From positions 64,001 through 128,000 of the forward strand of contig OZ240215.1 in NCBI GenBank assembly GCA_965197585.1: a stretch of 64,000 bases of DNA. Reading direction: 5' to 3'. The notes beneath the pieces are model-generated. The model was not told the origin of the DNA. It saw only the letters and a program-made list of their open reading frames with translations, and ran no database searches. Every line of letters begins with the position of its first letter. Position 1 is the first letter of the stretch. Positions 4,039 to 50,177 of the stretch are shown in pieces. The translations under genes were made by a program, and so were the position numbers. This stretch comes from Dehalococcoidia bacterium. GTDB taxonomy: Bacteria > Chloroflexota > Dehalococcoidia > Plut-88900.

Positions 4039-4482
4039 CTACCCCAAATCGCCGAGAGCAAATGTGAGCTCTCCGGCCGCCACAGTCTTCCCGTCTACCT
4101 CGGCCTTCGCCTTCGCCTTGCCCACCGGCCCCCGCATCCGCTCCAGGGACACCTCCATGCGGAGTACGTCACCGGGCTGTACAGGCTTGCGGAACCGAAA
4201 CGAGTCGATCCCTGCGAAATAGCCAACCTTGCCCCGGTTCTCCTCCAAGCTTAGTAGCGCCACGGACCCGACCTGCGCCAGGGCCTCCACGATGAGGACT
4301 CCGGGCATGATGGGGTAACCGGGAAAGTGGCCCTGGAAGAATGGCTCGTTGATGCTGACGTTCTTCAGTCCCACGGCTCGGGACCCTGGTTCCAGCTCTA
4401 TAATCCGGTCGACCATCAGGAAGGGCCACCGGTGAGGCAGAAGTTCCTGGATCTGTTGGGCCGACAGCACCGTTTCGCTCAT
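4039..4482 (-). CDS. fabZ: 3-hydroxyacyl-ACP dehydratase
   Basis: [36 protein letters not shown]; start set at MSETVL. Confidence 0.95.
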
Positions 4483-4483
4483 G

Positions 4484-5317: not shown

Positions 5318-5320
5318 GGG

Positions 5321-6088: not shown

Positions 6089-6192
6089 TTAGGCGCTCCC
6101 ACAATCGTCCGTGACCGAACGTCCGGCAAGGTTATGCGCCCAAGTTTCCGAGCTGGGCCGGGAAGAGAGATGGGTACGTGCGGTAATGGAAA

Positions 6193-36270: not shown

Positions 36271-36325
36271 ATCTTTTTCCTTTCTAAAGACCCGATAACA
36301 TTGTCATCTCGATGCCCCATATTTC

Positions 36326-36354
36326 TGTCATCCCGAGGCCCCGCGAGGGATCTA
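36326..36354. repeat. REP-like GTCAT-family repeat
   Basis: TGTCATCCCGAGGCCCCGCGAGGGATCTA, near-identical to 61735-61763 and to the IS481 empty site. Confidence 0.75.
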
Positions 36355-36430
36355 AGGCGCATGCAGGCGGCCCGCTTATGATTCGCTTTCCACGATATTG
36401 CCAATGGGGCCCGTGGGTTGAGGTTTCCAA

Positions 36431-36490
36431 TCCCCTCTCCCATCTAGGGAGAGGGCTAGGGTTGAAGACTCGCTGAGGCGAGTGAGGGTG
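36431..36490. repeat. BoxC-like repeat copy
   Basis: CCCCTCTCC...GGGAGAGGGCTAGGGT...GTGAGGGTG with inserted GACTCGCTGAGGCGAGT (similar insert at ~53284). Confidence 0.7.
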
Positions 36491-36518
36491 TTTCTTTTTC
36501 CTTACTAATGTCAGCTAA

Positions 36519-37310
36519 CTATTCTCCCCCGAACCACGTCCCAGGCCCCTTGCCCTCGACCGCATCCAGCAAGGCGTGCGGCCGACGCCCGTCAGTTATC
36601 ACGGCCCTTACCGACGCCTCTGAGGCTTTTAGGCAAGCCTCGACCTTGGGAATCATACCCGAGTTGATAACTCCGGATTCGATCATGTTCTGCACGTCGT
36701 CTCTCGAAAGGGAGGATGCACAGGTGCCGGTCTCGTCCAAAATCCCTTCCACGTCGGTGAGAAAAACAAGGGTTGAGACATGAATCTCGGAGGCCAGGGC
36801 GCCGGCCACGGTGTCGGCGTTGACGTTCAGGATGCCCCTCCAGTCTGCGCTGCCGTTTCGCCGTTGGGAGGCTATGGGCGACAGGACGGGGAGAAAACCG
36901 CTCTTAACAAGGGCCTCTAAAGGCGTGGGGTCCACCCCCGTGACCCGACCCACATACCCCAGCTCCGAGTCCCGCACCTCCGCCTGGATAATTCCTCCGT
37001 CCACACCGCTCAGACCGACGGCTCGACCCCCGCACCCGGCTATCGAGGCAACCAGTTCCTTATTTACGAGACCTGCCAGGACGGCCGTGGCGACTTCAAG
37101 TGCTGGACCGTCGGTGACTCGCAGCCCGCGGACGAATCGCGCCTCGACCCCGTGACGCCGCTGCCAGTCCGACACAACATTGCCGCCGCCGTGAACGACG
37201 ATAATCTCGACTCCGTCGCGCTGGAGGGCAGCCAGGTCTGAGAATAGGGTGTCGGACGCGCCGAGGGCCCCTCCCCCAATCTTGACTACTGCCTGACGCA
37301 TCCCCTTCAC
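36519..37310 (-). CDS. argB: Acetylglutamate kinase
   Basis: VVKIGG, VHGGG, GLRVTD, NVNADT, LTDVEG, GMIPKV. Confidence 0.95.
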   Translation of the reverse strand: MKGMRQAVVKIGGGALGASDTLFSDLAALQRDGVEIIVVHGGGNVVSDWQRRHGVEARFVRGLRVTDGPALEVATAVLAGLVNKELVASIAGCGGRAVGLSGVDGGIIQAEVRDSELGYVGRVTGVDPTPLEALVKSGFLPVLSPIASQRRNGSADWRGILNVNADTVAGALASEIHVSTLVFLTDVEGILDETGTCASSLSRDDVQNMIESGVINSGMIPKVEACLKASEASVRAVITDGRRPHALLDAVEGKGPGTWFGGE

Positions 37311-37322
37311 CTTGACCCGGGC

Positions 37323-38543
37323 CTAGGTAGTGTACTCGCTGTTGAAGGTGACGTACTCCTCGGAGAGGTCACACGTCCAGGCCGTCGCCGACGCTTCTCC
37401 AACATTCAAGACCAGCTTGATCGAGACCTCTTCCTGGTCCAGTGAACGAGAGACCGCGTCTTCGTAATAGGGGACGGGGGTGCCGTTGTTGAGCATGAAG
37501 ATATCGTTGATGAAGAGGTCGGTCTTCGACTCCTCGATATACGCGCCCGTCCGACCCAACGCAGCCATGAGGCGTCCCCAGTTGGGGTCGTTCCCGTGTA
37601 TCGCGCTCTTGACCAGCATAGAGGTCGATATGATTCGAGCGGCGTTACGGGCCTCATCCAGGGAGAGGGCCTTTTCGATGATGATTTCGATTATCTTGGT
37701 AGCGCCCTCACCGTCCCGTGCTATCTGCTTGGCCAGGAAGGTGCAGACCTGTTTCAGCGCCTCCGTAAAGGTCTCCCCCTCGGCCCCGTCTCCCGAGATC
37801 GGCGCATTCCCTGCCAGCCCGTTGGCCAGCACGGTGACTGTATCGCTGGTACTGGTGTCTCCATCGATGCTGATCATGTTGAAAGAGTCACCCACGGCAT
37901 TCTCAAGAGCAGTCTGTAGAAAAGCAGGATCGACCGCCGCGTCCGTAGCGATAAACGAGAGCATAGTAGCCATGTCCGGGTGTACCATTCCCGCGCCCTT
38001 GGCTATCCCCCCGACCACCGCCTGGGTCCCGCCACCCGTGTCAAAAGAGACCGCGATCTCCTTGGGGTGGGTGTCGGTGGTCATGATGGCCCGTGCCATG
38101 AACGGCCCTCCATCATCAGTGACCTCAATTTCCTCTATCCCCGCCCGTATTCGGGCCATCGGCAGCTCGACGCCTATGACGCCGGTACTGGCGATCAGCA
38201 CGTCCTCTGCCGCAACTCCGAGCTTATTCCCCGCCAACACTGACATCTCTACCGCATCGATCCGCCCCTGCTCCCCGACCGACACGTTGGCGATGCCGCT
38301 GTTTACTACAACGGCTTGAGCATATGGGTCTTTCAGGTAGTCCCTGTTGACCAGAATCGCGGGTGCCGTTACCCGGTTCTTGGTGAAGACGGCTGCAGCA
38401 GCGGCGCGGGCCTCCGAGTAGATAAGCCCGAGGTCCAGTTTGTCGACGCCGTAGGGTTTGACTCCGCAGTAAACACCGCCGGCGCTGAACCCTTTGGGGC
38501 TGGTAACGGTGCCGCCTTCAATCCGTTCTATAGAGCCTTTCAT
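37323..38543 (-). CDS. argJ: Bifunctional ornithine acetyltransferase
   Basis: ASTGVIG, AIMTTDT, AKGAGMVHPDMATML, DGDTSTSD, DGEGATK; start set at MKGSIE. Confidence 0.95.
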   Translation of the reverse strand: MKGSIERIEGGTVTSPKGFSAGGVYCGVKPYGVDKLDLGLIYSEARAAAAAVFTKNRVTAPAILVNRDYLKDPYAQAVVVNSGIANVSVGEQGRIDAVEMSVLAGNKLGVAAEDVLIASTGVIGVELPMARIRAGIEEIEVTDDGGPFMARAIMTTDTHPKEIAVSFDTGGGTQAVVGGIAKGAGMVHPDMATMLSFIATDAAVDPAFLQTALENAVGDSFNMISIDGDTSTSDTVTVLANGLAGNAPISGDGAEGETFTEALKQVCTFLAKQIARDGEGATKIIEIIIEKALSLDEARNAARIISTSMLVKSAIHGNDPNWGRLMAALGRTGAYIEESKTDLFINDIFMLNNGTPVPYYEDAVSRSLDQEEVSIKLVLNVGEASATAWTCDLSEEYVTFNSEYTT

Positions 38544-38638
38544 TGCTGCCTTTCCGTGCCTCGATCCTCCCTGGACAGGCGTCGTGAAGTATATCACTTT
38601 TGGTCTTGGAGGCATGAGACTCGGTGTTCATTGAAACG

Positions 38639-38673
38639 GGAAAAGCCGACGGGAGTATCCCGTCGGCTTTTCC
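38639..38673 (-). terminator. Intrinsic terminator-like hairpin downstream of UGSC gene 1
   Basis: GGAAAAGCCGACGGGA-GTA-TCCCGTCGGCTTTTCC perfect 16-bp inverted repeat. Confidence 0.7.
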
Positions 38674-38715
38674 ACCGAGCCTGGTTTCTTATGAAATCGT
38701 CTAGCTCGGCAGGAG

Positions 38716-39273
38716 TTAGGACATCCTGCCGTTCGTGAGGATGTCCACAATCTGGGGCAGGGCGTCCTTGGCCCGTGCCTTCAGGTCGTCATCCGCTAGG
38801 CTGCCGATGGGGTGCTTGACCACCACAAAGGGGTAGTCAGGGAGGCCGCGGGTGCGGGCGATGGCCTGCACTCCGGGTATGAACTGGTCGCTGATTATGA
38901 CAGCGGTGGGTACGCCCCGGTCTTCGAGGGAGATCGCGTCGTGCATACAGCACGTACTGCAGGAGCCTCAGTCCCCGATCGCAATCAGGGTGGCATCCGC
39001 CTTCTCCGCTAGCTCGTCGAGTAGCTCGGGGGGTGATACGTCGGAGACGTTTGGCCTGGCGACGAACGTGACGTCGGAGATCTCATACTCCGACTTGATG
39101 AGATCGGTGACCATCCAGAGGAGCTTGTCCCCGTTGAGCCTCCGGTCATGCAAGAGCCCGATGCGCTTGCCGTTGAGGCTGTCGATCTTGGGGGCCATAT
39201 CGATGTGCTCTTCGAGCATCTCGTCGCCCCTCGGGTCTAGGGCGATCATAGTTTTCAGCATGTCGCTGACCAT
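38716..39273 (-). CDS. UGSC-motif (seleno)protein, copy 1 (TGA at 38968-38970)
   Basis: IAIGD-TGA-GSCSTCCMHD joins ORFs 38968..39273 and 38716..38946 in frame; hairpin CGTGC-TGTAT-GCACG follows (38940-38954). Confidence 0.88.
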
Positions 39274-39483
39274 GGGTGCCTCCTTTGCTGACGTTAGTGG
39301 AACCAGTATACCACGCAGTGTGTCAATTCAGGCTGTCATTCCAAACGAAACTTCTAGGCGCTTGATTTAGCGTACCTTAAACTAAAGGTTGAGAGTGGTC
39401 TGAGGCATCGATGTTCAGAGTTGGCTTCCAGCCACCTTCCCGGCGACTGCCCCAAGTGTAGGCGAGGAAAGCAGGGTATGTAA

Positions 39484-40206
39484 TTGAGAGCGGTTACATG
39501 GAATGTCGAGTGGGCGACCGCTAGATCACGGCGTACCCCTGAAATACTGAGACGTATTGACGGTCACGCCCCCGAAATCGTCTGTCTCACCGAGACGGAT
39601 GTAAGGTTGCTGTCTCAACGCGGGTACACCATCTGCTCAGAGCCCGACGCCGGTTACGGAATCAAGATGAGCCGGCGTAAGGTCATACTCTGGTCGCGAG
39701 AGCCTTGGGACGAAGTAGATGACGTGGGGCTCGATTCGATGCCACCGGGCCGTTTTGTGGCTGGAGTCACGCAGACTTCCTTGGGCGAAGGCACAGTCGT
39801 TGGAGTCTGCATTCCCTGGTTCGGATCCCGGACCGAGGCTAGGCGCAAGGCGGAACGCAAGGAGCGGTGGGCAGACTATGAGCAGTATCTGGTCGGTCTC
39901 ACTGAAATTCTCGGACGAGCGACTGCGAAGCGTCTGATAGTGATGGGGGACTTCAATCAAGTTATAGGAACAGGTAGCCGAGCACCTGTCGACCTGCGGT
40001 TGGCGCTTAAAGAGGCCTTCCTGCCGAGCATGAAAATCGCTACATCAGATCTTGCCTTCCAGGGCCGCAAAAGCATCGACCACATTGCTCTGAGTAATGA
40101 TTGCGCAATTGGATCCCTGGAAGTAATCAGCAACATCCACGAAGAGAGAAAACTCTCAGACCATTTCGGAATAGTCGCCGACCTGACTGCCCAGCAATTG
40201 CCTTAG
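39484..40206 (+). CDS. Endonuclease/exonuclease/phosphatase family protein
   Basis: VTWNV, CLTE, MGDFN, IDHI, LSDH. Confidence 0.88.
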   Translation: MRAVTWNVEWATARSRRTPEILRRIDGHAPEIVCLTETDVRLLSQRGYTICSEPDAGYGIKMSRRKVILWSREPWDEVDDVGLDSMPPGRFVAGVTQTSLGEGTVVGVCIPWFGSRTEARRKAERKERWADYEQYLVGLTEILGRATAKRLIVMGDFNQVIGTGSRAPVDLRLALKEAFLPSMKIATSDLAFQGRKSIDHIALSNDCAIGSLEVISNIHEERKLSDHFGIVADLTAQQLP

Positions 40207-40294
40207 CATATGGCTGTTCTTGTGAGGGTGGACCACTCGGAAGGAAGCGTGGCTCCACGCAGATCACTTCGTGCTTAGAAGAGGTTGGGCGGGC

Positions 40295-41110
40295 CTACTT
40301 CCAATTCTGCTGCAACAACGGCTGATAAGTAATCCCCGTGGTCACACTCAGACCCGCGTCCACGGGTAGGGTAACTCCCGTGACCCACCGAGCCTCGTCG
40401 CTCGCAAGGAACACCGCCGCCCACCCCACATCCCATCCCGTCCCCTCCGTCCCGAGAGGCGCCGCCGCCATCCGCCTCTCCCGCATCCCCTCTTCCATCC
40501 GGGGCGCGACCATCGGCGTGTAGACCAGGCCCGGCGCTATGGCGTTGACACGTATGTTGTCCGGGCCGTGGTCTGCAGCCATGGAGAACGTCAGACCAAT
40601 AACCGCCGCCTTGGAAGTGGTGTAGGGAGTGCTGTGATGTGCCCTGAGCCCCGCTGTCGAAGCAATATTGATTATCGACCCACCGCCGTCCTCTTTCATC
40701 CGTGGCACGATGTGACGGCTGCACAGCATCATGCTCTTCACGTTGACGGCCATTACCCGGTCCCACTCCTCAGGCGTCACATCCAGCACCGACCCTCGCT
40801 TGGATATGCCCACGTTGTTCACCAGCACGTCGATGCGGCCGTAGCGTTCGATGGCCGTCTCAGCGAGACGGCTGGCGTCCTCTTCGACAGTGACGTCAAC
40901 CTCGATGGTGGATGCCACTCCTCCCTCCGCCTCTATCGTGGCGAGGGTCTCGCGGGCACGGTCCTCGTGCAGGTCCGCAAGCAATACCCTCGCTCCCTCC
41001 TGAGCGAAAAGAATAGCCGTGGCCTTCCCATTCCCCATGCCCGGCCCGCTGGACCCGGCCCCCGTAATTATGGCTGTCTTTCCCGCTAGTCTTCCTTCGG
41101 TGTTGGGCAT
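40295..41110 (-). CDS. Short-chain dehydrogenase/reductase
   Basis: ITGAGS..GNG, NNVG, YTTSK, IRVNAIAPG. Confidence 0.93.
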   Translation of the reverse strand: MPNTEGRLAGKTAIITGAGSSGPGMGNGKATAILFAQEGARVLLADLHEDRARETLATIEAEGGVASTIEVDVTVEEDASRLAETAIERYGRIDVLVNNVGISKRGSVLDVTPEEWDRVMAVNVKSMMLCSRHIVPRMKEDGGGSIINIASTAGLRAHHSTPYTTSKAAVIGLTFSMAADHGPDNIRVNAIAPGLVYTPMVAPRMEEGMRERRMAAAPLGTEGTGWDVGWAAVFLASDEARWVTGVTLPVDAGLSVTTGITYQPLLQQNWK

Positions 41111-41394
41111 TACTACCCCTTCCTATCTGACCCGCTGAAAGCAATCAGTGGGCTGGATTGCCCTTTCCCCTGTGCTTTTCTCAATCTACCTATGTTTGCC
41201 GTCTCGAATAAACGCGACCTTGGGATTCCCAGAATCCCTCCCACCGCCAGCAGGACGAGTCCCCACCGATGAACCCTTCGGTTGCCCTGAAATAGCCTAG
41301 CACCTAATCATAGCTATGATATTTGCAGCTTATCCCTTGAATGTCTGTTAGTCTAATCAGCGCGTATTACAAACATAAGGAGGGAATCTTTAGC

Positions 41395-41709
41395 ATGCCA
41401 ATCCAGAGCGCTCTACCACCAAAACCAGCGATAACTGAAGACAATACACGATACACCCACGAATATTTGCGTGCGTGCGCCATCAAAGAGGAAAGGAGCA
41501 TGTTAGGGATGGGCGCACCCAAAGAGCATGCCAGCAATTACCCCTCCCGGGAGATTCAGGCGCACCTAAACAGGCGAGCCTCAGAAGGCTTGAGGTTGGC
41601 ATTCATGGAGCCACATTGGTACTACGGGCGGGAATATATCAGCGCGGCTATGTCTATCACGAGGCCACTTGCGATCATTGGGTGGTATCTGACTTTTGAG
41701 AGGGCCTAA
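41395..41709 (+). CDS. Small hypothetical protein
   Basis: AAGGAGG RBS before ATG 41395; 104 aa. Confidence 0.55.
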   Translation: MPIQSALPPKPAITEDNTRYTHEYLRACAIKEERSMLGMGAPKEHASNYPSREIQAHLNRRASEGLRLAFMEPHWYYGREYISAAMSITRPLAIIGWYLTFERA

Positions 41710-41722
41710 TGAGGTCTGCTCG

Positions 41723-42730
41723 TTATTCTATTTCGCCGGTCTCGAAGATATGCGGCCCGAGGATTCCCAGCAATCCACTCGCAGCCAAATGCACCGTCCG
41801 ACCCGTCGGGTCTAGAGGCGGGGCCACTTCACAAATGTCTATTGCCTTGATGATGTCGTAGCTGGAAAGGGCTTCCATCATTTCCAGGAACTCCACGCCG
41901 GTGATTCCCGTGAATATCGGTGCCCCCGTCCCTGGTGACTCCGACCCATCCACCACGTCGATGTCTATCGTCACGTAGACAGCGTCCACACTGTGCCCCA
42001 CCACTTCCATCGCACTCCTCACAATTTCCGCCGGTCCCTGCTCCCGGATCATCTTGGCCGTGGTGACCTGCATGCCCCCCGACCTGAATATTCGGTGCTG
42101 CGCCGGATCGATTACCGATCCGTTTAGCCCGACCCACGCCATGTTGGTATAGGAGATGTGGGTGTCCTCGCTGAGCCGCCGGGCCTGCGTCCCGTGAGTG
42201 TACTTCCCCCCGACGCCGTGAACGTCCCGGAAGTCAGGGTGACTGTCGATATGCAGATACCCGAGCCTCGGGGACCCGCCCCGCTCCGACATCCCTTTCG
42301 AGAAGCCTGCAAATCCCGGGTAGGCCACGTAATGGTCGCCGCCAAGGAGTACTGGTACACCCCCTCTCTTCACAACATCGGCGACGCCCTTGATAACGAT
42401 TTCGGTCGTGTCCCGCATGTCCGTGGGGTTGATGTCGAAATCACCAATGTCGATGAGGGGTGGAGAGGCTACGGGCTTTCGCCAGATGCCGGTTTCCACG
42501 TCCATAAGGGTGTTCTCTGCTGAAACCTCGTAAGCCCCCCGATGCTGCATGGAGGCCTCACGGATGCCGCGGGGGCCGTACCGAGCCCCGGGCCGCCCTG
42601 TGACTACCCCCTGGTCTATCGGCACTCCCGCCACGACCAATGTTCCTTCCTCAACGTCCTCCACGCCCGCGATCTTGCCGCTGAAGAAAGAGGGGAAACC
42701 TGTGTATGACGTGTACAGCTTGCCTGCCAT
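41723..42730 (-). CDS. Agmatinase/ureohydrolase family protein
   Basis: RPGARYGPRGIR, GGDH, HIDSHPD, TIDIDVVD..SPGTG, EVAP. Confidence 0.9.
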   Translation of the reverse strand: MAGKLYTSYTGFPSFFSGKIAGVEDVEEGTLVVAGVPIDQGVVTGRPGARYGPRGIREASMQHRGAYEVSAENTLMDVETGIWRKPVASPPLIDIGDFDINPTDMRDTTEIVIKGVADVVKRGGVPVLLGGDHYVAYPGFAGFSKGMSERGGSPRLGYLHIDSHPDFRDVHGVGGKYTHGTQARRLSEDTHISYTNMAWVGLNGSVIDPAQHRIFRSGGMQVTTAKMIREQGPAEIVRSAMEVVGHSVDAVYVTIDIDVVDGSESPGTGAPIFTGITGVEFLEMMEALSSYDIIKAIDICEVAPPLDPTGRTVHLAASGLLGILGPHIFETGEIE

Positions 42731-42782
42731 CGGTTGACCTCCGGGACTGGGTTAGTTTTGGTTGTGGTCTTTCGAATAGGAC

Positions 42783-43823
42783 CTAGGGCTCTACAATCGA
42801 CTCGATAACCGACGTACTCGAATGTCCATGAGAGAATATAGGCACCATCGCCGAGACCGCACCTCCCGTACCCCCCGCCACGTACAGGTGCAATTGCTCG
42901 GGTAACGTGGGAACGGATCGCTCCTCACTGACCGGGTCTTCGAACGGTGTGACGCCGCCCAGCTCATATGCCCGCTCGGCGTCGAATACCAGCCCCGGGC
43001 TCATTTCGTTCACGCGCTCTGCTATATATTCCTTGATCTCGGCCTTTGTCATGCCCGCGGGCGCTATATTGAAAAGATGCTCGCCGCTGATGATTAACAC
43101 CAACTCGCCGTGGCAATTGATGTTCGCGGCTATGGCATGGCTGATCGTGTCCAGGATCGCCTTGGGCGAGTTGTCGGCGTAGTTGAACACCGGGATTGGG
43201 GGCAGAGCGGGGAAAAGGCTTACTGTACTCGTCGATGGATCGAAACCCTTCTCGACATGATACGGTTCCCAGATGCTGCTCTCCTCATCCTCCGCGATGC
43301 AGCAGGTGTAACGCGCCGGGCTCCCGAACGCCGACTTGTCCGTCACGCCCGGTATCTCCCCGCAAACGTTCATCAATATCAGCCGCAGCGTCCGCCCGAT
43401 AGTTGAGTTCGCCCGCCACCCGGGCCCGAACAGGTTCCACCCGGAGTTGATGTCCAGCTTCTTCCGGATGGGCCCATTCACCACGATCATCGGCGCCGAC
43501 ATTCCGGATGTCGTCTCGCTTATGCCTGAGAGGTTGAACTCCGGCTTTAGCATCGCCCTCACAGCGGCCGCAACTACCGGAGCGTACTCAGCCTTGCAGC
43601 CGGCCATTATGGCGTTGACGGCAACCTTCTGAGCGGTGACGATCCAGTTCCGGCTCTCCCGTGTCCCGAGCACCTCATCAGGCGAGAGCCCCCCGGCTTC
43701 GAGGAATGCCTGCACGGCCTCCGCGGTGGGGGGCACGACGGGCAGGCCATCAGTCAAGCCCTGTTCGAAGAAATACTCGATTGCCTGGATAGTATCGGGA
43801 AGCTCTGTGCCCTTGGTCGTCAT
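42783..43823 (-). CDS. Uncharacterised 'TDGLPVVPPT' protein, paralog 1
   Basis: TDGLPVVPPT, NAIMAGC, VNGP, RANSTIGR, CIAEDEE. Confidence 0.85.
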   Translation of the reverse strand: MTTKGTELPDTIQAIEYFFEQGLTDGLPVVPPTAEAVQAFLEAGGLSPDEVLGTRESRNWIVTAQKVAVNAIMAGCKAEYAPVVAAAVRAMLKPEFNLSGISETTSGMSAPMIVVNGPIRKKLDINSGWNLFGPGWRANSTIGRTLRLILMNVCGEIPGVTDKSAFGSPARYTCCIAEDEESSIWEPYHVEKGFDPSTSTVSLFPALPPIPVFNYADNSPKAILDTISHAIAANINCHGELVLIISGEHLFNIAPAGMTKAEIKEYIAERVNEMSPGLVFDAERAYELGGVTPFEDPVSEERSVPTLPEQLHLYVAGGTGGAVSAMVPIFSHGHSSTSVIESIVEP

Positions 43824-43832
43824 GATCTCTTT

Positions 43833-44873
43833 CTAGGCCGCGGATACGGGTTCAAGTACGCTTTTACTCAGAACGCCCTGTCCCCACAACGGAATAATCG
43901 TGGAATGTCCGCCGCCCTCTCCACCTGCGACCAGCAGGGTAATGCCTTCAGGAGTGGTGGAAATGCCCGAGTCGTCCGGGTCATCGGTGCCCGGGTACCA
44001 GGTCCCGCCCAGCGCCCCGATCCGCTCCCGTTCGTAGGCGAACTGAGGCTGAAACTCGTTGGCTCGCTTGGCCAGGTATTCCTTGACGTCCTGCTTGCTC
44101 CATCCCGCCGGCCCGATGTTCTGCGCGTGCTCGGGGCTCATTATGAGCATTACTGGCCCGTGGCAGACCAGGTTGGCGGCGATGGTGTGGCTCAGCGTGT
44201 CGAGAATCTGCTCCGGGATCGGGTCCGACTGGTTGAACACCTCCATTGGATGACAGACAGGGAAAAGGCCCACCGCACTCGACTCAAGCGCCATCCCCCG
44301 CTCGACGTGATACGGCTCCCATGGGCTCGCTTCTTCGTTCTCAGCTATGCAGAAGGTGTACCGCCCCGGGTGCCCGAACGTCGACTTATCTGTCACACCC
44401 GGAATTTCCCTGCATACGTTCATCAGCACGAGCCTGAGAGTACGGCCGATGGTAGCGTTGGCCCGCCACCCGGGCCCGAACAGGTTCCATCCCCCGTTGA
44501 CGTTTAGTTCCTTGCGGATTGGGCCGTTCACTACGATAAGTGGCGCCGAGGTCCCTGCCGTCTCCGCGATGGCGGATGCGTTGAACTCGGGCTTCAGTAG
44601 AGCCCGTATGGACGCAAGCACAACTGGTGCGTATTCGGCCTTGCAGCCCGCCATCACAGCGTTGACCGCCACTTTCTGAGCGGTCACGACCCAGTTACGG
44701 CTCGCCCGAGTCCCTATCACCTCCCCGGGCTCCGTACCCCCAGCCTCCAAAAACGCGCCCACGGTTTCCGCCGTAGGAGGCACGACAGGGAGGCCGTCTG
44801 TCATTCCCTGCTCGTAGAAATACTCAATCGCCTCGACGGTATCCGGTAATTGAATTCCGGCGGATTCGCTCAA
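43833..44873 (-). CDS. Uncharacterised 'TDGLPVVPPT' protein, paralog 2
   Basis: Tandem paralog of 42783..43823, same length and motifs. Confidence 0.85.
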   Translation of the reverse strand: MSESAGIQLPDTVEAIEYFYEQGMTDGLPVVPPTAETVGAFLEAGGTEPGEVIGTRASRNWVVTAQKVAVNAVMAGCKAEYAPVVLASIRALLKPEFNASAIAETAGTSAPLIVVNGPIRKELNVNGGWNLFGPGWRANATIGRTLRLVLMNVCREIPGVTDKSTFGHPGRYTFCIAENEEASPWEPYHVERGMALESSAVGLFPVCHPMEVFNQSDPIPEQILDTLSHTIAANLVCHGPVMLIMSPEHAQNIGPAGWSKQDVKEYLAKRANEFQPQFAYERERIGALGGTWYPGTDDPDDSGISTTPEGITLLVAGGEGGGHSTIIPLWGQGVLSKSVLEPVSAA

Positions 44874-44907
44874 GATGACCTCCCGGTCTCCGTGTGTGTT
44901 GTCCGAT

Positions 44908-45009
44908 CCCCTCTCCCTGGATGAGACCTTTGCGTAACCTCGATGGGAAGGGTAAGGGTCGGTGTCCTATACCCTCTCCCTTGATGGGAGAGGGCTAGGG
45001 TGAGGGTGA
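44908..45009. repeat. Two BoxC-like copies, the first carrying a single MITE-end remnant
   Basis: GAGACCTTTGCGTAACC at 44923-44939 in the loop; intact copy at ~44972-45009. Confidence 0.7.
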
Positions 45010-45067
45010 AAGAACATTCTCCCAGAACAACCTTGCATACGTATTCACGCCTCAGGCGTGGCAACCC

Positions 45068-46102
45068 CTAATTCCGGAAATGAGGCATGATCTCTTCACT
45101 GAACTTACGCATCATGCCTATCTTGTCGAAGATCGTGAAGAGGACGGTGGAGATGGTGGTAACGCCCATGTTGCCCAATTCCTCGATCTGCTGCCTGATC
45201 CCCTCCGACGGACCTGTGAGGTGGTAGGTGTCGATCATCCTTTGGGTGACGAGCTTGGCATGAGGCGCGTCAACGTGTTCATGGAAATACTCGTTGTAGG
45301 CCTTGGCCGCGTTCGCCGAGTCACTCATCAGCTCTTCCACTATCCCCGGCTCCCGATGCTCCATCCGCCTCCGAAGATCATGAATCTCCGGTACGTCCCG
45401 GCTGAAGAACTGGTGCATTTTGATGTACATCGTCGGGTACGACGAAACCTCTTTACGCGCCTCCTCCTTGGTATCGGAAATGTAGGTCATGTTGCGGCAC
45501 CAGATGTCTATCTCCCCCGGGTCCCGACCCGCCTCTTCCGCTCCCTGGTGTATCAACTCCACCCGCCACTTCGCCATCTCCGGATGCACCCCAATGAAAA
45601 TGGCCCCGTCGGCTATCTTTCCCGCCAGCTTGCACAGCTTCGGCCCGTCCACTGCCAGGTAAATGGGAACCTTGGACTTTGACCACTCCGAGTGCATCTT
45701 GGCCCCCTGCCACTCCACCTCTTCCCCGGCCATGTAACCCCGCAGAAAATTAATAGCCTTTTCTACCTCCTTGGTGGTACGGGGCCGCATCGATTTACCG
45801 AACCGCCCCCCCGCCCCCAGCCCCAGAATCGCCCTCCCCCCCGACACTTCGTTCAGGGTGGCATGGCCCGTCGCAGTGACCGACGGGTGGTAGGTTATCG
45901 GGTCCGTGACCGCGGACATCAACCCGATACGTTTAGTGCTCAGCGCCGCTATGGTCAGGCTGGAATACATGTCCCGGGACAGGTTCGGCTGGTCTACCCA
46001 CCCCATCATGGAAAAACCACACTCCTCGGCTGCCCTGGCGTGGGCCGGGATGTCGTAGGCAGGTATATTCCGCCCCATCCCGACAGTGAAATTCATCTTC
46101 AT
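45068..46102 (-). CDS. LLM (luciferase-like) class flavin/F420-dependent oxidoreductase
   Basis: AEECGF, TLNEVSGGRAILGLGAG, PIYLAVDGPK...AGKIADG. Confidence 0.9.
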   Translation of the reverse strand: MKMNFTVGMGRNIPAYDIPAHARAAEECGFSMMGWVDQPNLSRDMYSSLTIAALSTKRIGLMSAVTDPITYHPSVTATGHATLNEVSGGRAILGLGAGGRFGKSMRPRTTKEVEKAINFLRGYMAGEEVEWQGAKMHSEWSKSKVPIYLAVDGPKLCKLAGKIADGAIFIGVHPEMAKWRVELIHQGAEEAGRDPGEIDIWCRNMTYISDTKEEARKEVSSYPTMYIKMHQFFSRDVPEIHDLRRRMEHREPGIVEELMSDSANAAKAYNEYFHEHVDAPHAKLVTQRMIDTYHLTGPSEGIRQQIEELGNMGVTTISTVLFTIFDKIGMMRKFSEEIMPHFRN

Positions 46103-46167
46103 GCTTGGCGTATCTCCTTAATTGATCTCTGCATAATCCCAACAAATCGTGCTGTGGGTGGTGTCCA

Positions 46168-46208
46168 GTCCCCTCTCCCTTGATGAGAGAGGGCTAGGGT
46201 GAGGGTGA
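46168..46208. repeat. BoxC-like repeat copy
   Basis: GTCCCCTCTCCCTTGATGAGAGAGGGCTAGGGTGAGGGTGA. Confidence 0.8.
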
Positions 46209-46289
46209 TTTAAGTATTGCAACACCAGCTACTCAGATGTCTGGTGGGCATTATAGGCTTTGTCGGTTTCGGTCCGTAGACACATTGGC

Positions 46290-46979
46290 CTAGTGCGGCA
46301 TCTTCCTCGCGGCTGCCCGGTACCGGCAGAACTCGCACCTGCGGGCCGAGGGCGGAGGCTCGGGGAGGTCAAGCAAGGTGACAACTTCGCTGAGAAAGGC
46401 ATCGAACGCGGCATCGTCACGGGGCATCTCCTTCCACTCCACATTGCCGCTATAGGATATCCGGCCTTGGGCGTCCCTAACAAGCGCGTCGGGTTCCACG
46501 CAGACGAGACCAAGCCGGGTGATGGGAGAGAGGGCCAAATTGCCGGGCGCGGCGCGCTCCAGCGCATAGGCGTAGGCGTGGAGCTGCCGTGTGTAGAGAG
46601 GCAGGTGACCGCTCTGTGTAGACGTGGTCTTGAAGTCGATAATTCCGTAGCTGCCGTCCTCAAACTCCAGCACCGAGTCAAAACGCCCGCGGATAAAACA
46701 CGTGGACGCCCGGCCTGGCAGTGCAATGGGCCTGGACTCGACCCAACTCTCTCCGTACTTCACCAACCCCGGCGGCAGTGTGTCCGAAATCTCCGCATTC
46801 GGCCTGTCGTTGAAGTATTCGTTCATCAGCCGGTCGATGACGCTGAAGATACCGGGGAAAGGAGTTCGGGGTCGGTAGAAGCCTCGAGCGACCTTAAGAT
46901 AGAAGCAACGCTTGCACTCCTCCCAGAGAAAAGCGAAGTCCGAGGGGCTGAGTTTCCAACTTTTTGTCGAAGTGGTCAT
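46290..46979 (-). CDS. PD-(D/E)XK nuclease family protein (RecB/AddB/Cas4-like, standalone)
   Basis: LSPS, CKRC, GRFD, IIDFKT, QLHAY, CEFC; start set at MTTSTK. Confidence 0.85.
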   Translation of the reverse strand: MTTSTKSWKLSPSDFAFLWEECKRCFYLKVARGFYRPRTPFPGIFSVIDRLMNEYFNDRPNAEISDTLPPGLVKYGESWVESRPIALPGRASTCFIRGRFDSVLEFEDGSYGIIDFKTTSTQSGHLPLYTRQLHAYAYALERAAPGNLALSPITRLGLVCVEPDALVRDAQGRISYSGNVEWKEMPRDDAAFDAFLSEVVTLLDLPEPPPSARRCEFCRYRAAARKMPH

Positions 46980-47344
46980 AAAGTGGGAGTGGCGAACAGG
47001 GGCGCGACACCCCAATGCTCGGCAATCTTGCCCTGCTCCACGCGGATGGTGTGTACTCCGGCCGAGACGGGACTCGGGCCTCCGCCGCACTCCTCCAGAA
47101 TCAAGGCTACAATACCTTCCCGGGCCCGTAACTCCGATATAGCGTAGTCCGATCCGCTCCCAAACAGACGTCGGGAGGCCAGAGACTGCTTCAACACCTC
47201 TCGGTCGGAGGGAAGCCCCGGAGGGCCCGCGTGTTCTCTAAAATCGGCGGACACCAGATCGTCAATGAGAATCATGCAGCTTTGGTTGGCAACTTCCTCC
47301 ACCAACCGCCGCACTACCTCGCAGTCCGCCGAGGCCTTCATCAT
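46976..47344 (-). CDS. SnoaL/NTF2-like protein (possibly degenerate)
   Basis: VVRRLVEEVAN...IDDLVSADFREH...RVEQGKIAEHWG; C-terminal part of ORF 46976..48436. Confidence 0.6.
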   Translation of the reverse strand: MMKASADCEVVRRLVEEVANQSCMILIDDLVSADFREHAGPPGLPSDREVLKQSLASRRLFGSGSDYAISELRAREGIVALILEECGGGPSPVSAGVHTIRVEQGKIAEHWGVAPLFATPTL

Positions 47345-47379
47345 TTCCCTCGACAGAACCCTTTGAAGTATGTCATTCC

Positions 47380-48435
47380 TGTAAGTGTTAGGTAATTCGT
47401 TGACAGATTGGTATAAGAGGCCAACACCAATCTGGAGGCGAGAATGCGAGACAATAGCAAGGACCTCACCCTTGAACGTAACTACATTCAGAAGTGGCGG
47501 TTCCTCATCCATGAGTATCAACTGGTCAAGGCAGGGAAGCATCCCCGTTTCCGCTTCGCCCAGGACTTCTACTCCTTCCACGGCACTAGCCGTCAGACCT
47601 TTGCCAAGTACTACAACCGGTTCCTCCTCTCCCCCTCCGACAACGCCTTCCTCCCCCGTAAGCGGGGTCCCGGGTGGAAGTCCCGCCGCACCCTGCCCTA
47701 CATTGAGCAGAAGGTCATCAACGAGCGCCTTAACGGTACCAACCGTTACGAGATCTATGCCATACTCAAACCCATCCTTAAACACAACACCCCTAAGCCC
47801 TCCACCATCTACGCCATCACCAGACGCCACGGTTTCAATAGGCTCACAAAGCCGATGCAGCAGTCGAAGCGCAAGATCATCAAGACCCGGGCAGGAGAGC
47901 TGGGCCACCTGGACAGCCACTACCTCAGCCGGGATACCATCGTGGGCACCAAGCACCGCTACTACCTGGTGGGCCTCATCGACGCCTACACCCGTCTGGC
48001 CTGGGCCGAAGTGGTCGGAGACATCAAGAGTCTCTCCGTTATGTTTGCTACTCTGAAGTCCATCAATTTCCTTAACGTGGAGTACGGCATCCAATTCGAG
48101 GCCATCCTCACCGACAACGGCCCCGAGATGGCCTCCCCAAGGAACACCGAGGGCCACCCCATGGAACGGATGCTCAATGAGCTGGGCATAAAGCACCGCT
48201 ACACCCGCCCTTATAGGCCCCAGACCAACGGGAAGATAGAGCGGTTCTGGAGAACCTTGAACGAGGACCTGCTGGAGGGGACAACCTTCGAATCGGTCTC
48301 GGAACTGAAGGACGAGCTTCAGCAATACCTGATCTACTACAATACTCAGAGACCCCACCAGGCAATGGACGGAAAGACCCCTTTGGAGACCCTTAAATCC
48401 ACCTAATTCTGTCAACGAATTACCTGACATCCACA
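47380..48435 (+). mobile_element. IS481-family insertion sequence, 1056 bp, apparently intact
   Basis: 28-bp imperfect terminal inverted repeats with TGT ends (24/28 match), 5-bp direct repeat ATTCC at 47375-47379 and 48436-48440. Confidence 0.92.
47444..48406 (+). CDS. IS481-family DDE transposase (integrase core)
   Basis: GELGHLD, LTDNGPE, TRPYRPQTNGKIERFWRTL, YN..RPH. Confidence 0.95.
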   Translation: MRDNSKDLTLERNYIQKWRFLIHEYQLVKAGKHPRFRFAQDFYSFHGTSRQTFAKYYNRFLLSPSDNAFLPRKRGPGWKSRRTLPYIEQKVINERLNGTNRYEIYAILKPILKHNTPKPSTIYAITRRHGFNRLTKPMQQSKRKIIKTRAGELGHLDSHYLSRDTIVGTKHRYYLVGLIDAYTRLAWAEVVGDIKSLSVMFATLKSINFLNVEYGIQFEAILTDNGPEMASPRNTEGHPMERMLNELGIKHRYTRPYRPQTNGKIERFWRTLNEDLLEGTTFESVSELKDELQQYLIYYNTQRPHQAMDGKTPLETLKST

Positions 48436-48472
48436 ATTCCGATGCCCCGCGAGGAACCTGGGGCGGGGTCCT

Positions 48473-48513
48473 GTCCCCTCTCCCTTGACGGGAGAGGGCT
48501 AGGGTGAGGGTGA
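48473..48513. repeat. BoxC-like repeat copy
   Basis: GTCCCCTCTCCCTTGACGGGAGAGGGCTAGGGTGAGGGTGA. Confidence 0.8.
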
Positions 48514-48552
48514 TGTCCCGAAATTCACCCCGACACGGCCACCGCAGACGGC

Positions 48553-49104
48553 TTACCCTTCCACTTCCAGAATCTTTAGAATCTGGGGAACGGCCGCCTG
48601 CGCCCGAGCCTTCAGATCCGTCGGGGTCAGCCGTCCGATCGGGTGATGAATTATGACGAATGGATAATCGGGGATGCCCTGTATCTCGGCGATGGCCTTA
48701 GCCTGGTTTACAAACTCGTCCGTGATGAGCACCGCAGAGGGTACGCCCAGTTTTTCGAGCTCAATTCCGTCGTGCAAACTGCACTGAGAGCAGGAGCCTC
48801 AGTCCCCGATCGCTACTACGGCGAAATCGCTCTCCTTTGCCAGCTCGGCCACCGTGTTAACCGGCGCCGGTCGAGACGCGTCAGCCTTGCTGGAAGCCTT
48901 CACGTTCTTCAACTCGAACTGCTCACCCAGCAGGTCTCCGACCATTTCCAGAAGCTCGGTGGCGTTATGCTTGCTGTTGGATAGCAGCCCGAGAACCTTT
49001 CCTTCAAGCTTGCCGGGCCTCGGGGCCATCTCCGCCTCGGCGTGGAGGGACTGGGCCCTGGGGTCCATCACAGTGATGCCCCCGTTCTTGGTCTCGGTTG
49101 TCAT
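48553..49104 (-). CDS. UGSC-motif (seleno)protein, copy 2 (TGA at 48799-48801)
   Basis: VAIGD-TGA-GSCSQCSLHD joins ORFs 48799..49104 and 48553..48777 in frame; hairpin GTGC-AGTTT-GCAC (48772-48784). Confidence 0.88.
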
Positions 49105-49133
49105 GGCGCGCTCCTTTCCCGTGTGTTGGGACT

Positions 49134-50177
49134 CTACATACCGGGTATTTGCTTGGTTACCGACTTGGTTCCCTTGCCGCCGCCCCAGGGCATAATCGTG
49201 CAGAAAAACCCTCCCGCCGTGCCCCCGGCCACGAGCACCATCAGGTTGTCGGGGCTTTCGACGGCAGCAACGACTTCAGAATCGTCGTGCGATCCTTCCT
49301 CGGGGTCCCAGCCCCGGTCCATGCCGCTCCAGAAGGAATAAGGGCGTTTCGTCGCTTCGAAAAGATAGTTCTTTACGTAGTCCTTGGACAACCCTTCCTC
49401 ACGAATGTGGAGCAGTACCTCAGGGCTGATTACTACCATGAGTTCCCCACCGTTCGGCATCCCGTTGGCCAGGATTCCCCCGGCCAGGGAGTTGAGAATG
49501 CCCTCGGCGGTGTGGCTGCCGTGGTCGCTGCCTTGGATGGGAGCATTCCCCGCGTAGACCGTTACCGCGCTCGATTCCAGCGCCAGCCCGCGCTCCACGT
49601 GGAGCGGAGCCCAGGGGCTGAGCTCTTCGTTTTCGGCGAAGCAGTAGCTGTACTTACCCGGGTGCCCGAACGTCGACTTGTCCAGTATCCCCGGCACCGA
49701 GCCACACACGTTCATAATGATGAGCCGGATCGCCCTGCCTATTGTGGCGTTGGACCTCTTGGTAGGGCCGAACAGGTTGTTGGCGTAGTTGATGTCCAGT
49801 TCCTTCACGATTGGCCCATGTACCAGGACCATGTGGCCCGTGCCCGCCGTGCTCGCCGAGGTTCCGTGAAGGTTGAACTTCTCTTCGCACATCGCCGAGA
49901 TGGCGGTGGCGACGACGGGCATGTATTCGGGTTTGCACCCGGCCATGATGGCGTTGATGGCCACCTTCCCGGCGGTGATCTCCCGCTTGCGGGTCGGTAT
50001 CGTGCCGAGCACGTCCCCAGGAGCCTTGCCGATTGCGTCCAGGAATCGCGTCACCATATCGGGCGTAGGAGGCACGACGGGCAGGCCGTCGGTCAACCCC
50101 TGCTCGAAATAGAACTCGATAGCCTCAACGGTATCCGGTACTTGGAAAGTCTGAGAAACTGACTCGCTTTGCGCCAT
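49134..50177 (-). CDS. Uncharacterised 'TDGLPVVPPT' protein, paralog 3, co-oriented 29 bp upstream of UGSC copy 2
   Basis: Same motifs as paralogs 1 and 2. Confidence 0.85.
   Translation of the reverse strand: MAQSESVSQTFQVPDTVEAIEFYFEQGLTDGLPVVPPTPDMVTRFLDAIGKAPGDVLGTIPTRKREITAGKVAINAIMAGCKPEYMPVVATAISAMCEEKFNLHGTSASTAGTGHMVLVHGPIVKELDINYANNLFGPTKRSNATIGRAIRLIIMNVCGSVPGILDKSTFGHPGKYSYCFAENEELSPWAPLHVERGLALESSAVTVYAGNAPIQGSDHGSHTAEGILNSLAGGILANGMPNGGELMVVISPEVLLHIREEGLSKDYVKNYLFEATKRPYSFWSGMDRGWDPEEGSHDDSEVVAAVESPDNLMVLVAGGTAGGFFCTIMPWGGGKGTKSVTKQIPGM

Follow-up and report, generated by a model that had tools for sequence, protein, structure and literature searches.

A UGSC-family selenoprotein and its 'TDGLPVVPPT' partner as a candidate two-part selenium enzyme in a Dehalococcoidia bacterium

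A 64,000-nucleotide stretch of a Dehalococcoidia bacterium genome (C1:64001-128000, hereafter the window) carries two UGSC-family genes, each with an in-frame TGA codon, and three genes for partner proteins that share the motif TDGLPVVPPT. The question raised by this locus is whether the two families form one selenium-dependent enzyme, and what such an enzyme would do. The first-pass annotation had put forward an undescribed reductase resembling the GrdB/PrdB catalytic domain. Catalogues have listed UGSC itself, the 'UGSC-containing protein' of Zhang and Gladyshev, since 2007/2008, and the available portions of PMC1976440 and PMC13188914 describe it as a selenoprotein of unknown function; the available portion of PMC2398784 notes its fusion, in some aquatic organisms, to a conserved but functionally uncharacterised domain with at least one conserved Cys, 'Unknown_1' (Figure S1A of that paper). 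The word undescribed is therefore only partly apt; an obligate partner and a homology to GrdB/PrdB are both absent from those portions of the published UGSC accounts (PMC1976440, PMC13188914).

The UGSC genes and their relation to GrdB and PrdB

Both UGSC genes lie on the minus strand. UGSC1 (38716-39273) encodes a UGSC-family selenoprotein of 185 aa with U102 in the motif AIGD-U-GSCSTCC, and UGSC2 (48553-49104) one of 183 aa with U102 in AIGD-U-GSCSQCS; the in-frame TGA codons corresponding to Sec102 are at 38968-38970 (-) and 48799-48801 (-), respectively. The two products are 44% identical, and by their scores against Pfam PF24696 (183.1 and 187.2 bits, cut-off 25) and NCBIfam NF041046 (142.1 and 149 bits, cut-off 125) both are plain members of the UGSC family. 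In an alignment of 62 UGSC sequences U102, G103 and C105 were the only invariant residues and S104 was nearly so; the third Cys of the U-G-S-C-S-x-C pattern first read from the two copies is not conserved. The AF2 model of UGSC2 (pLDDT 89) has a Rossmann/flavodoxin-like fold with a five-stranded sandwich, and the Sec is placed at the N-terminus of helix 103-118. No partner gene adjoins UGSC1, which lies directly upstream of argJ-argB-argD, where ArgJ (37323-38615) was confirmed by domain scan and argB and argD were assigned from translations read by eye. The genome has three UGSC copies, compared with five partner paralogues.

The resemblance to GrdB/PrdB was borne out for the C-terminal ~100 residues. 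When the 62 UGSC sequences were searched against family models, 18 matched the GrdB model TIGR01917 (best E 1.9e-6), 13 GrdF, 11 TIGR01918, 11 PrdB and 9 GrdH, while no unrelated family was matched by more than three of the 62. With hhalign, the UGSC profile aligned to that of 13 Dehalococcoidia GrdB-family proteins at 92.4% (E 5.1e-7, 96 columns), with Sec on Sec and HP(I/L)G on HPLG, and at 51.6% to one single GrdB; UGSC 80-183 aligns with GrdB 334-433, again Sec on Sec. GrdB/GrdF/GrdH (TIGR01917, TIGR01918), PrdB (TIGR04483) and UGSC have in common a beta-strand followed by U-G-(S/T)-x-(S/T) and …E..G(V/L)P(S/T)A…F…HP(I/L)G, and in GrdB-type selenoproteins as in UGSC a larger second subunit is encoded next door. 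The sequence comparison thus shows remote homology between residues ~80-183 of UGSC and the C-terminal region of GrdB/GrdF/GrdH/PrdB that carries the Sec.

The likeness does not extend to family membership, which was ruled out by scores of 16-17 bits against cut-offs of 65-602. Unlike GrdB, UGSC has only 183-185 aa and lacks the N-terminal ~330-residue part, and PF07355, which covers that part, was not matched in UGSC at E<=0.1. UGSC also differs from GrdB/PrdB in having no linked grdA, grdC or grdD and in the nature of its partner, which shows no relationship to the pyruvoyl proenzymes GrdE and PrdA (hhalign 0.1%); the Schiff-base step of the Grd/Prd enzymes therefore has no counterpart here. 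A canonical Grd set is present elsewhere in the genome (GrdA, two GrdB-type and six or seven GrdE-type genes); all of its GrdA, GrdB and GrdE-family genes lie outside the window, in which no Grd/Prd genes were found, in agreement with the first-pass annotation.

The partner family and its linkage to UGSC

The two UGSC genes, the three partner genes and the 29-bp gap between one such pair were all located where the first-pass annotation had placed them. Partner P0005 (49134-50177, minus strand, 347 aa) ends 29 bp upstream of the UGSC2 start, and the paralogues P0004 (43833-44873, minus strand, 346 aa, TTG start) and P0003 (42783-43823, minus strand, 346 aa) form a tandem; all three contain TDGLPVVPPT. 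More than 7000 homologues of P0005 were found, and all 120 among the matches listed are named 'hypothetical protein'. P0005 itself had no Pfam or NCBIfam match, and the family has no PDB relative by sequence. The AF2 model of P0005 has pLDDT 92.4 and pTM 0.92, and among solved structures the partner found no clear fold match, the best Z being 5.5. The polar residues R141, N143, R148, N156 and E182 are invariant.

The pairing of UGSC and partner is real. In 80 related loci from several phyla, 68 of which have a UGSC gene, UGSC lies directly downstream of 62 of the 93 partner genes (within 400 nt, same strand) and directly upstream of 8; 16, including P0003 and P0004, have no adjoining UGSC despite room for one, and 7 are at a contig edge. 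No third gene family recurs as a neighbour in more than 10 of these loci. A third partner-UGSC pair is found elsewhere in the genome, at C1:1522162-1523747. Among 61 Dehalococcoidia genomes, UGSC was found in 23, the partner in 23 and neither in 38, and the two sets of 23 are the same genomes with similar numbers of matches (compared by eye between tables). This operon pairing is not reported in the available portion of PMC2398784.

Most genomes encode the two by separate genes side by side, whereas others have them fused. Among 16 long partner homologues, the 7 that carry PF24696 are natural fusions, and the partner domain is carried by 11 of the best 150 UGSC representatives. Such fusions occur in Cys form and in Sec form, the latter including a tandem of three genes at one locus (L118), which encode fusions of 559-600 aa with in-frame Sec. 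The 'UGSC/Unknown_1 fusion' of PMC2398784, as far as its available portion describes it, fits these proteins, making the partner a candidate identity for Unknown_1.

A complex was modeled from the natural Cys-form fusion P0291, split at its linker and run with a custom-built alignment, instead of from the window pair. The ipSAE was 0.79 (runs 0.79, 0.78 and 0.80) compared with at best 0.00 in three controls; in the benchmark, 58 of 80 solved complexes attained that mark, as did 2 of 110 mismatched pairs, counts that are a rough guide here since a custom-built alignment was used. The runs share at least 86% of contacts, with a scored chain pLDDT of at least 80, and a score owed to memorised structures is unlikely because neither family has a solved relative by sequence. 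A confident complex, as the first-pass annotation had asked for, is thus predicted for a homologue. On the UGSC side the modeled interface consists of the U/C-G-S-C loop and the N-terminal arm, which is conserved (…LDP…, with P15 invariant), and on the partner side of the PPT of TDGLPVVPPT, K71/N75/M78 before MAGC, and N156; these partner segments are among the most conserved motifs of the family. P0004, which has no UGSC gene beside it, retains this predicted docking surface (P36-T38, K71, N75, M78 and N156). C81 and C179 of the partner, the MAGC and CxAE cysteines near which the first-pass annotation had looked for the Sec, were absent among the confidently touching residues, a list in which the partner contacts of the Sec-equivalent Cys were not given.

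Profile similarity, complex and linkage had been set beforehand as the points on which a GrdB/PrdB-like two-part system could fail; all three were examined and none spoke against it.

The other neighbours named in the first-pass annotation were confirmed by domain scan. A luciferase-like monooxygenase (45068-46102, minus strand; PF00296, 162.5 bits) lies between the pair P0005-UGSC2 and the tandem P0004-P0003, an arginase-family ureohydrolase (41723-42730, minus strand; PF00491, 204.8 bits) directly downstream of the tandem, and an SDR at 40295-41110. Luciferase-like monooxygenases are neighbours in just 7 of the 80 related loci, and the one here and the ureohydrolase are regarded as context only for the UGSC-partner module.

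A candidate enzyme module and its alternatives

Adjacency, co-occurrence and fusion tie the two families together, and UGSC and its ~346-aa partner may be two parts of one enzyme module, separate or fused, in which the Sec attacks the substrate; we put the chance of this at about even. The likeliest character of the module is that of a thiol/selenol-dependent reductase diversified into many paralogues, with a chemistry and substrate that we infer by analogy with PrdB and GrdB. The pairing points to a selenium enzyme of two parts, a distant relation of glycine and proline reductase, with a function that is now testable. For PrdB, the proposed mechanism has the Sec attacking the substrate and a Cys resolving the resulting adduct. 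By this analogy, the partner would bind a small, probably carboxylate-bearing substrate through its conserved R141, N143, R148, N156 and E182, the U102 selenolate at the subunit interface would attack the substrate or a bound intermediate, C105 would resolve the adduct with formation of a Se-S bond, and that bond would then be reduced again by a thiol system, for example thioredoxin with its reductase. The three partner paralogues of the window might differ in substrate specificity and draw on common UGSC subunits. As a reaction, the reductive C-N or C-S cleavage raised in the first-pass annotation is speculative.

Alternatively, UGSC could be a dedicated thioredoxin-like reductant that recycles a Cys-based partner (through C81 of MAGC, or C179) and never touches the substrate, which we consider rather doubtful. 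A U-x-x-C after a beta-strand and at a helix N-terminus is the usual spot for redox dithiol motifs, and NrdH with RNR, or Trx with Msr or ArsC, likewise pair a small U/CxxC protein with a larger enzyme. C81 is retained in 61 of 64 partners, and M78, beside MAGC, is in the predicted interface. Single fusions known from one cluster each also recall redoxin-dependent Cys enzymes, with the partner joined in P0007 to an AhpC/Redoxin CxxC domain standing where UGSC would be and in P0008 to a Pyr_redox_2 module, and in the secreted fusions P0011-P0013 U102, C105, C81 and C179 were all lost together. However, three UGSC-paired partners have Ala at position 81 although their UGSC retains Sec and C105, the fusion P0292 lacks C81 and C179 but keeps the CxxC in its UGSC domain, and Rokubacteria-type partners lack C179, so some paired or fused forms can do without the partner cysteines, unlike redoxin-dependent Cys enzymes. 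The AF2 model of UGSC has no thioredoxin fold, and the Sec region is most closely related to GrdB and PrdB rather than to thioredoxins; the position of C81 and C179 outside the confidently touching residues also argues against a reductant role, although this is uncertain either way. The C81-less paired partners, P0292 and the joint loss in P0011-P0013 suggest that the Sec acts independently of the partner cysteines.

It is improbable that the pair is no small-molecule enzyme at all but a redox sensor, chaperone or protein-modifying/repair system with the partner as scaffold or client. Such a role would suit the partner, which showed no recognisable cofactor, metal site or known catalytic fold, and the persistence of secreted forms that have lost their redox residues. 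Against it stand the dozens of paralogues (47 UGSC matches in G033 and 46 in G035) and the tandem arrays, both typical of substrate-diversified catabolic enzymes, together with the transporters, SDRs, hydrolases and luciferase-like monooxygenases that neighbour related loci and the resemblance of the five invariant polar residues to a small-molecule site.

Selenocysteine decoding

Decoding of the UGSC TGA codons as Sec is credible. The genome contains selA (542.7 bits) and selB (369.6 bits), both exceeding the cut-offs, as well as a tRNA-SeC gene. In related loci, all 74 UGSC matches covering the Sec codon have TGA at the aligned position, and the protein sequence is conserved on either side, indicating more than chance. 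A hairpin 3' of the UGA (alignment columns 16-32, numbered from the T of TGA) covaries among 70 homologues, with 96.1% of cells paired compared with 84.6% in shuffles, and 4 of its 7 pairs have changes on both sides (43 such cells). The SECIS-like hairpins of UGSC2 (48770-48786, minus strand) and UGSC1 (38939-38955, minus strand) each form 5 of the 7 family pairs; both are just 5 bp long and had no Rfam match.

That TGA is an ordinary stop, leaving broken genes or two short ORFs and no selenium-dependent product, is very hard to credit: public gene calls do end the protein at 101 aa (P0143, P0155, P0165 and P0262) and the 65-nt folds at both window copies score no better than shuffled sequences (z -0.67 and -0.89), but besides the conserved TGA codons, the covarying hairpin and the decoding genes, C occupies this position in 142 of 146 aligned representatives among the best 150, some of which may be annotated Sec since U is displayed as C, and RNA-library contigs cross the TGA codon. 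These contigs, from four sponge metatranscriptome runs, span 48559-49131, across the TGA of UGSC2.

Two UGSC genes, their neighbourhood and the decoding of the TGA codon

Two paralogous genes of the UGSC family, UGSC1 (38716-39273, 185 aa) and UGSC2 (48553-49104, 183 aa), lie on the (-) strand of the window, and both are open only when one TGA at codon 102 (U102) is read through, the motif around it being AIGD-U-GSCS(T/Q)C in both translations. Three paralogues of about 346 aa with the TDGLPVVPPT motif, here called the partner, are encoded on the same strand (49134-50177, 43833-44873 and 42783-43823), and 29 bp separate the end of the first of them (P0005) from UGSC2. All of these genes and motifs had been reported in the first-pass annotation, and every coordinate was found to be correct. 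UGSC1 and UGSC2 are clear members of the UGSC family, scoring 183.1 and 187.2 bits against PF24696 (curated cut-off 25) and 142.1 and 149 bits against NF041046 (curated cut-off 125), and U102, G103 and C105 are invariant in the family (62 sequences aligned).

Other neighbours of the module in the window are genes for a luciferase-like monooxygenase, an arginase-family protein, an SDR and a PD-(D/E)XK protein. Between UGSC2 and the remaining same-strand cluster lies an rve-type (IS481-like) transposase gene (47444-48406, (+) strand). A recent insertion at this place is suggested by a 94%-identical relative (L034), which has about 1.3 kb less between UGSC and the next partner gene. UGSC1, in the (-) cluster at 35080-39273, has no adjoining partner and is located about 100 nt upstream of argJ (Pfam-confirmed), after which genes resembling acetylglutamate kinase and acetylornithine aminotransferase were read from their translations. 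The intergenic spacers of the UGSC/partner cluster are occupied by a 42-nt repeat forming a G+C-rich hairpin (CCCCTCTCCC…GGGAGAGGG), which is present at 48472-48513 and also at about 2482, 44968 and 46167, the genome having 43 copies, 27 of them forward and 16 reverse, when up to 4 mismatches are allowed; in sponge RNA-library contigs its summed depth exceeds 1000, with many different flanks.

The genome, a single contig of 3.43 Mb in which the window occupies C1:64001-128000, contains selA (542.7 bits) and selB (369.6 bits) by profile search and a tRNA-SeC gene at C1:3198932-3199030 (contig coordinates). Among 80 related loci of public genomes, a TGA stands at the Sec position in all 74 UGSC matches that cover it, and protein conservation in the UGSC alignment persists on both sides of this codon. 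In the family alignment, a 7-bp hairpin with a G-U-rich triloop begins 13 nt past the UGA; among 70 sequences its pairing holds in 96.1% of cells, versus 84.6% in shuffles and 16-59% with the opposing columns slid, and two-sided (compensatory) changes were found in 4 of the 7 pairs (43 cells). This covariation count was used to judge the SECIS in place of single-sequence folding or Rfam, where a search at the hairpin region matched no family. Only 5 of the 7 pairs form in UGSC1 and UGSC2, and the 65-nt folds of both copies are no better in energy than shuffles (z not significant), so the support for a SECIS is at the level of the family and not of the single sequence. On these genomic signatures, the TGA codons very probably encode selenocysteine.

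In four sponge metatranscriptome libraries of one study, contigs of about 98% identity span 48559-49131 of UGSC2 and cross the TGA unchanged, although contigs of this kind are no proof of transcription. The P0005 gene is mostly without a covering contig in the four runs, which has no bearing on its expression, and no contig bridges the junction between P0005 and UGSC2 by 31 letters on each side. The summed contig depth reaches 110-240 at 48720-48847, which includes the Sec codon and the SECIS, and is 6-8 in the rest of UGSC2, a peak that fits many related UGSC genes in the sponge samples sharing this conserved stretch.

Linkage of UGSC to a partner family

The genome encodes three UGSC genes and five partner genes, and the third UGSC gene is also directly downstream of a partner; a fourth match, to a DNA pattern for Sec-UGSC genes, was rejected as a chance match in the frame of another gene. 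The fifth partner paralogue (L008 1-4024, C1:1892009-1896034) has no UGSC neighbour; as read from translations, its stop lies 7 nt before a gene of 495 aa resembling phytoene-desaturase-type FAD oxidoreductases, and it faces a gene resembling luciferase-like monooxygenases.

Scanning for the partner in one genome per species gave at least 592 confirmed loci, and the best 80 were analysed, which come from Dehalococcoidia, Ktedonobacteria, Methylomirabilota/Rokubacteria, Binatia, Poribacteria, Nitrospinota, Burkholderiales and others. A UGSC gene is present in 68 of these 80 loci, where 62 of the 93 partner genes are directly followed by it on their own strand (median gap 52.5 nt between hit ends) and 8 have it directly upstream, while 16 have none despite room and 7 are at a contig edge. 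Any other gene family neighbours the partner in at most 10 of the 80 loci, the neighbours seen being ABC transporters, SDRs, TctC, luciferase-like monooxygenases, peptide-binding proteins and alpha/beta hydrolases. Partner homologues of Poribacteria (L041, L045, L048, L050 and L064) match only residues 1-332/344 of the query, keep C81 and the invariant residues, and have no UGSC within 6 kb.

In a sample of 61 Dehalococcoidia genomes, UGSC was found in 23, the partner in 23 and neither in 38; comparison of the two tables gave the same 23 genomes with close match numbers, a co-occurrence that is a description and not a test because kin are not independent. Fusions were also observed: PF24696 is carried by 7 of 16 long partner homologues, a partner domain follows behind a linker of about 40 residues in 11 of the 150 best UGSC representatives, and three tandem UGSC-partner fusion genes (559-600 aa), each with an in-frame Sec codon, occupy 1346-6797 of a Dehalococcoidia contig (L118). 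The available part of the 2008 GOS paper (PMC2398784) mentions UGSC fused with a conserved domain named 'Unknown_1', and this domain is probably the TDGLPVVPPT partner family. Conserved linkage in other genomes, which the first-pass annotation had set as a check, is borne out by adjacency, co-occurrence and fusions, and UGSC and the partner very probably form one functional unit.

The partner family comprises more than 7000 homologues at 90% clustering, and for the 120 listed neither a Pfam domain nor a name other than 'hypothetical protein' is given. The partner has no match in Pfam, NCBIfam or a PDB sequence search, a search of the ESM Atlas returned its own family only, and in a Pfam scan of 64 members no family was matched by more than 6 (best E 0.017). 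Its AF2 model (pLDDT 92.4, pTM 0.92) gave no solved chain at Z of at least 6 in a VIA search that barely covered residues 1-130, the best rows (Z 5.2-5.5) being an 80-residue chorismate-mutase/YjgF-like subdomain at residues 210-330. Foldseek gave nothing at E<=1e-3, its weak rows over the whole length (TM<=0.29) being class I fumarate hydratase and the Toblerone-fold cyanuric acid hydrolase.

Among 64 partner sequences, D30, G31, P33, A73, A76, A79, G80, G121, R141, N143, G147, R148, N156, E182, W189, G318 and G322 are invariant, and C81 (of the MAGC motif) is kept in 61. An Fe-S cluster on C81, C158 and C179 was rejected since C158 and C179 vary. For a pyruvoyl-forming cleavage at G80-C81, by analogy with GrdE/PrdA, no evidence was found, and three paired partners have Ala81.

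Relation to selenoprotein B and the predicted complex

GrdB and PrdB, the selenoprotein subunits of glycine/sarcosine/betaine and D-proline reductases, work with pyruvoyl proenzymes of the GrdE/PrdA family, whereas the UGSC partner is not of this family: its profile against the six GrdE-family proteins of the genome (PF09338) gave an hhalign probability of 0.1% (E 0.52), and by this comparison it is unrelated to the pyruvoyl subunits.

The UGSC protein itself had been described as resembling the catalytic domain of GrdB/PrdB, and this holds for the Sec-bearing C-terminal region only. Single UGSC proteins match PrdB (E 0.0025) and GrdB (E 0.0047) marginally, and at full length the scores are 15.9 bits against TIGR01917 (cut-off 602) and 17.3 bits against TIGR04483 (cut-off 300). 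Over 62 UGSC sequences, the selenoprotein B families were the only recurrent secondary matches, with GrdB (TIGR01917) in 18, GrdF in 13, TIGR01918 (cut-off 65.45) in 11 at E<=0.05, PrdB in 11 and GrdH in 9 (best E 1.9e-6, TIGR01917), and no unrelated family was matched by more than 3 of them. Aligned by hhalign with a profile of 13 GrdB-type proteins of Dehalococcoidia, UGSC residues 80-183 gave a probability of 92.4% (E 5.1e-7, 96 columns), in a register where the two Sec residues coincide, E..G(V/L)P(S/T)A meets its equivalent and HP(I/L)G is matched to HPLG. We conclude from these profiles that the Sec-bearing half of UGSC is likely related by remote homology to the C-terminal part of selenoprotein B. 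Since UGSC is without the N-terminal GRDB domain (PF07355, no match at E<=0.1) and scores far below the cut-offs, it is not a member of the GrdB, GrdF, GrdH or PrdB families. The motifs also differ, the GrdB-type proteins of this genome having U-G-T-G-T-R-S with no Cys at +3, in contrast to the UxxC of UGSC.

The first-pass annotation had noted no grdA, grdE or prdA homologue in the window, and no Grd or Prd genes are present there; the canonical glycine/sarcosine/betaine-reductase set (one GrdA and two GrdB-type selenoproteins, plus six or seven genes of GrdE type) is all elsewhere in the genome, at C1:2153003-2154292, C1:1578968-1580260, C1:2155888-2156328 and six or seven PF09338 places (loci L093, L096-L102, L108 and L116). 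No PDB sequence relative was found for the GrdB-type protein of this genome.

The AF2 model of UGSC (pLDDT 89) is a five-stranded Rossmann/flavodoxin-like sandwich of (beta-alpha)x5 order with Sec at the N-terminus of a helix. Its PDB neighbours are generic flavodoxin/Rossmann-like proteins (Foldseek TM <=0.49; best VIA Z 11.8, a de novo design), and no thioredoxin is among those listed, an absence that is no exclusion. A thioredoxin-like fold around UxxC was suggested for UGSC in the part of PMC2398784 available (2008), and the predicted model does not fit it.

The complex was modelled on P0291, a naturally occurring fusion of the Cys form that was split into its two domains and supplied with a custom alignment of homologues. 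The two domains gave an ipSAE of 0.79 (0.78-0.80 between runs), compared with a best value of 0.00 among three controls; among solved complexes 58 of 80 attain the mark used, and among mismatched pairs 2 of 110, counts that hold only roughly because of the custom alignment. The runs agreed in at least 86% of contacts, with a pLDDT of the scored chain of at least 80. Since no solved sequence relative of UGSC or the partner was found in the PDB, this result is unlikely to reflect memorised structures. The subunit pairing of the first-pass annotation has a confident model for a fused homologue, and the model is of that homologue and not of the window's own pair.

In window numbering, the modelled interface comprises, on the UGSC side, the V12-M13-D14-P15-R16 arm (P15 is invariant), the K45 region, the whole U102-G-S-C105-S-x-C108 loop and H111, and on the partner side P36-P37-T38 of TDGLPVVPPT, K71, I74, N75 and M78 just before MAGC, N102-A111, L152, N156, V157, C158 and K167. 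In the model, the best conserved motifs of the two families therefore lie opposite each other, and Sec would be located at the interface. C81 and C179 of the partner are absent from the residues named as touching. The tandem partners without a UGSC neighbour, P0003 (42783-43823) and P0004 (43833-44873), keep the interface residues, so that binding of UGSC to them in trans would fit.

Candidate mechanism and paralogue expansion

A PrdB-like reading, in which a selenol attacks a substrate held by a two-part module, is the likeliest and stands at about even odds in our judgement, and it draws by analogy on the modelled position of Sec and on the probable descent of the Sec region of UGSC from the GrdB/PrdB lineage. 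The partner would bind a small substrate, perhaps a carboxylate as suggested by its Arg/Asn/Glu set, U102 would attack the bound substrate, C105 would resolve the adduct with formation of an Se-S bond, and a thiol system would re-reduce this bond. The main rival, to which we give roughly half that credence, is that UGSC acts only as a redoxin, re-reducing a partner Cys that has become oxidised; single partner fusions do carry a Redoxin or Pyr_redox_2 domain, and in a secreted subfamily Sec, C105, C81 and C179 have been lost jointly, but three paired partners have Ala at position 81, and the fusion P0292 is without C81 and C179 and yet keeps its CxxC.

The fusions of this secreted subfamily (P0011, P0012 and P0013) have Ser at the Sec position and Gly at C105, with Ala at C81 and Val at C179 of the partner domain. 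Their sequences show an N-terminal hydrophobic stretch, likely a signal peptide, and they are redox-dead versions in which the fused architecture and the remaining conserved residues are kept.

UGSC is a selenoprotein of unknown function in the available parts of PMC2398784, PMC13188914, PMC9312934 and PMC1976440, and the 2026 review among them (PMC13188914) still lists it without function. Beyond the 'Unknown_1' fusion, those parts contain no link of UGSC to GrdB/PrdB or to a partner gene, although the curators' notes of PF24696 and NF041046 may say more, and the literature searched gave no paper naming both selenoprotein and SAR202. What is new here is a selenoprotein-B-like redox subunit that would work with a new kind of partner. 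UGSC thereby gains an experimental handle, namely an almost obligate partner with more than 7000 unnamed homologues, natural fusions, a modelled Sec loop at the interface and a probable GrdB/PrdB ancestry, and a large dark partner family, which lacks a Pfam or NCBIfam model and a clear match among solved folds, gains an entry point.

Tentatively, UGSC and the partner could represent, as its founding pair, a large class of two-component selenoenzymes that has gone unrecognised, with a catalytic-subunit fold that has no solved relative and dozens of substrate-specific paralogues per genome, some as tandem Sec fusions, acting in the selenium-dependent reductive breakdown of diverse small organics in sponge-associated, marine and soil bacteria. 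If true, this would explain both the place of UGSC among the most abundant selenoproteins of the environment and the very large selenoproteomes of some Dehalococcoidia.

The available part of the BSepDB paper (PMC13326102) reports Dehalococcoidia with 49 and 46 selenoprotein genes, and the name 'UGSC' is absent from its main text; expansion of the module's paralogues may account for some of these very large selenoproteomes. Counting Sec-UGSC genes by DNA pattern undercounts them. Two Dehalococcoidia genomes, G033 (at least 47 UGSC matches, only 47 of its 208 first-look candidates having been scored) and the 2.7-Mb G035 (46 UGSC matches), were scored by matches, which are not copy numbers, and every listed match has one TGA. 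The expansion, which includes the three tandem Sec-containing fusions of L118, fits a substrate-diversified enzyme family when taken together with the catabolic neighbours.
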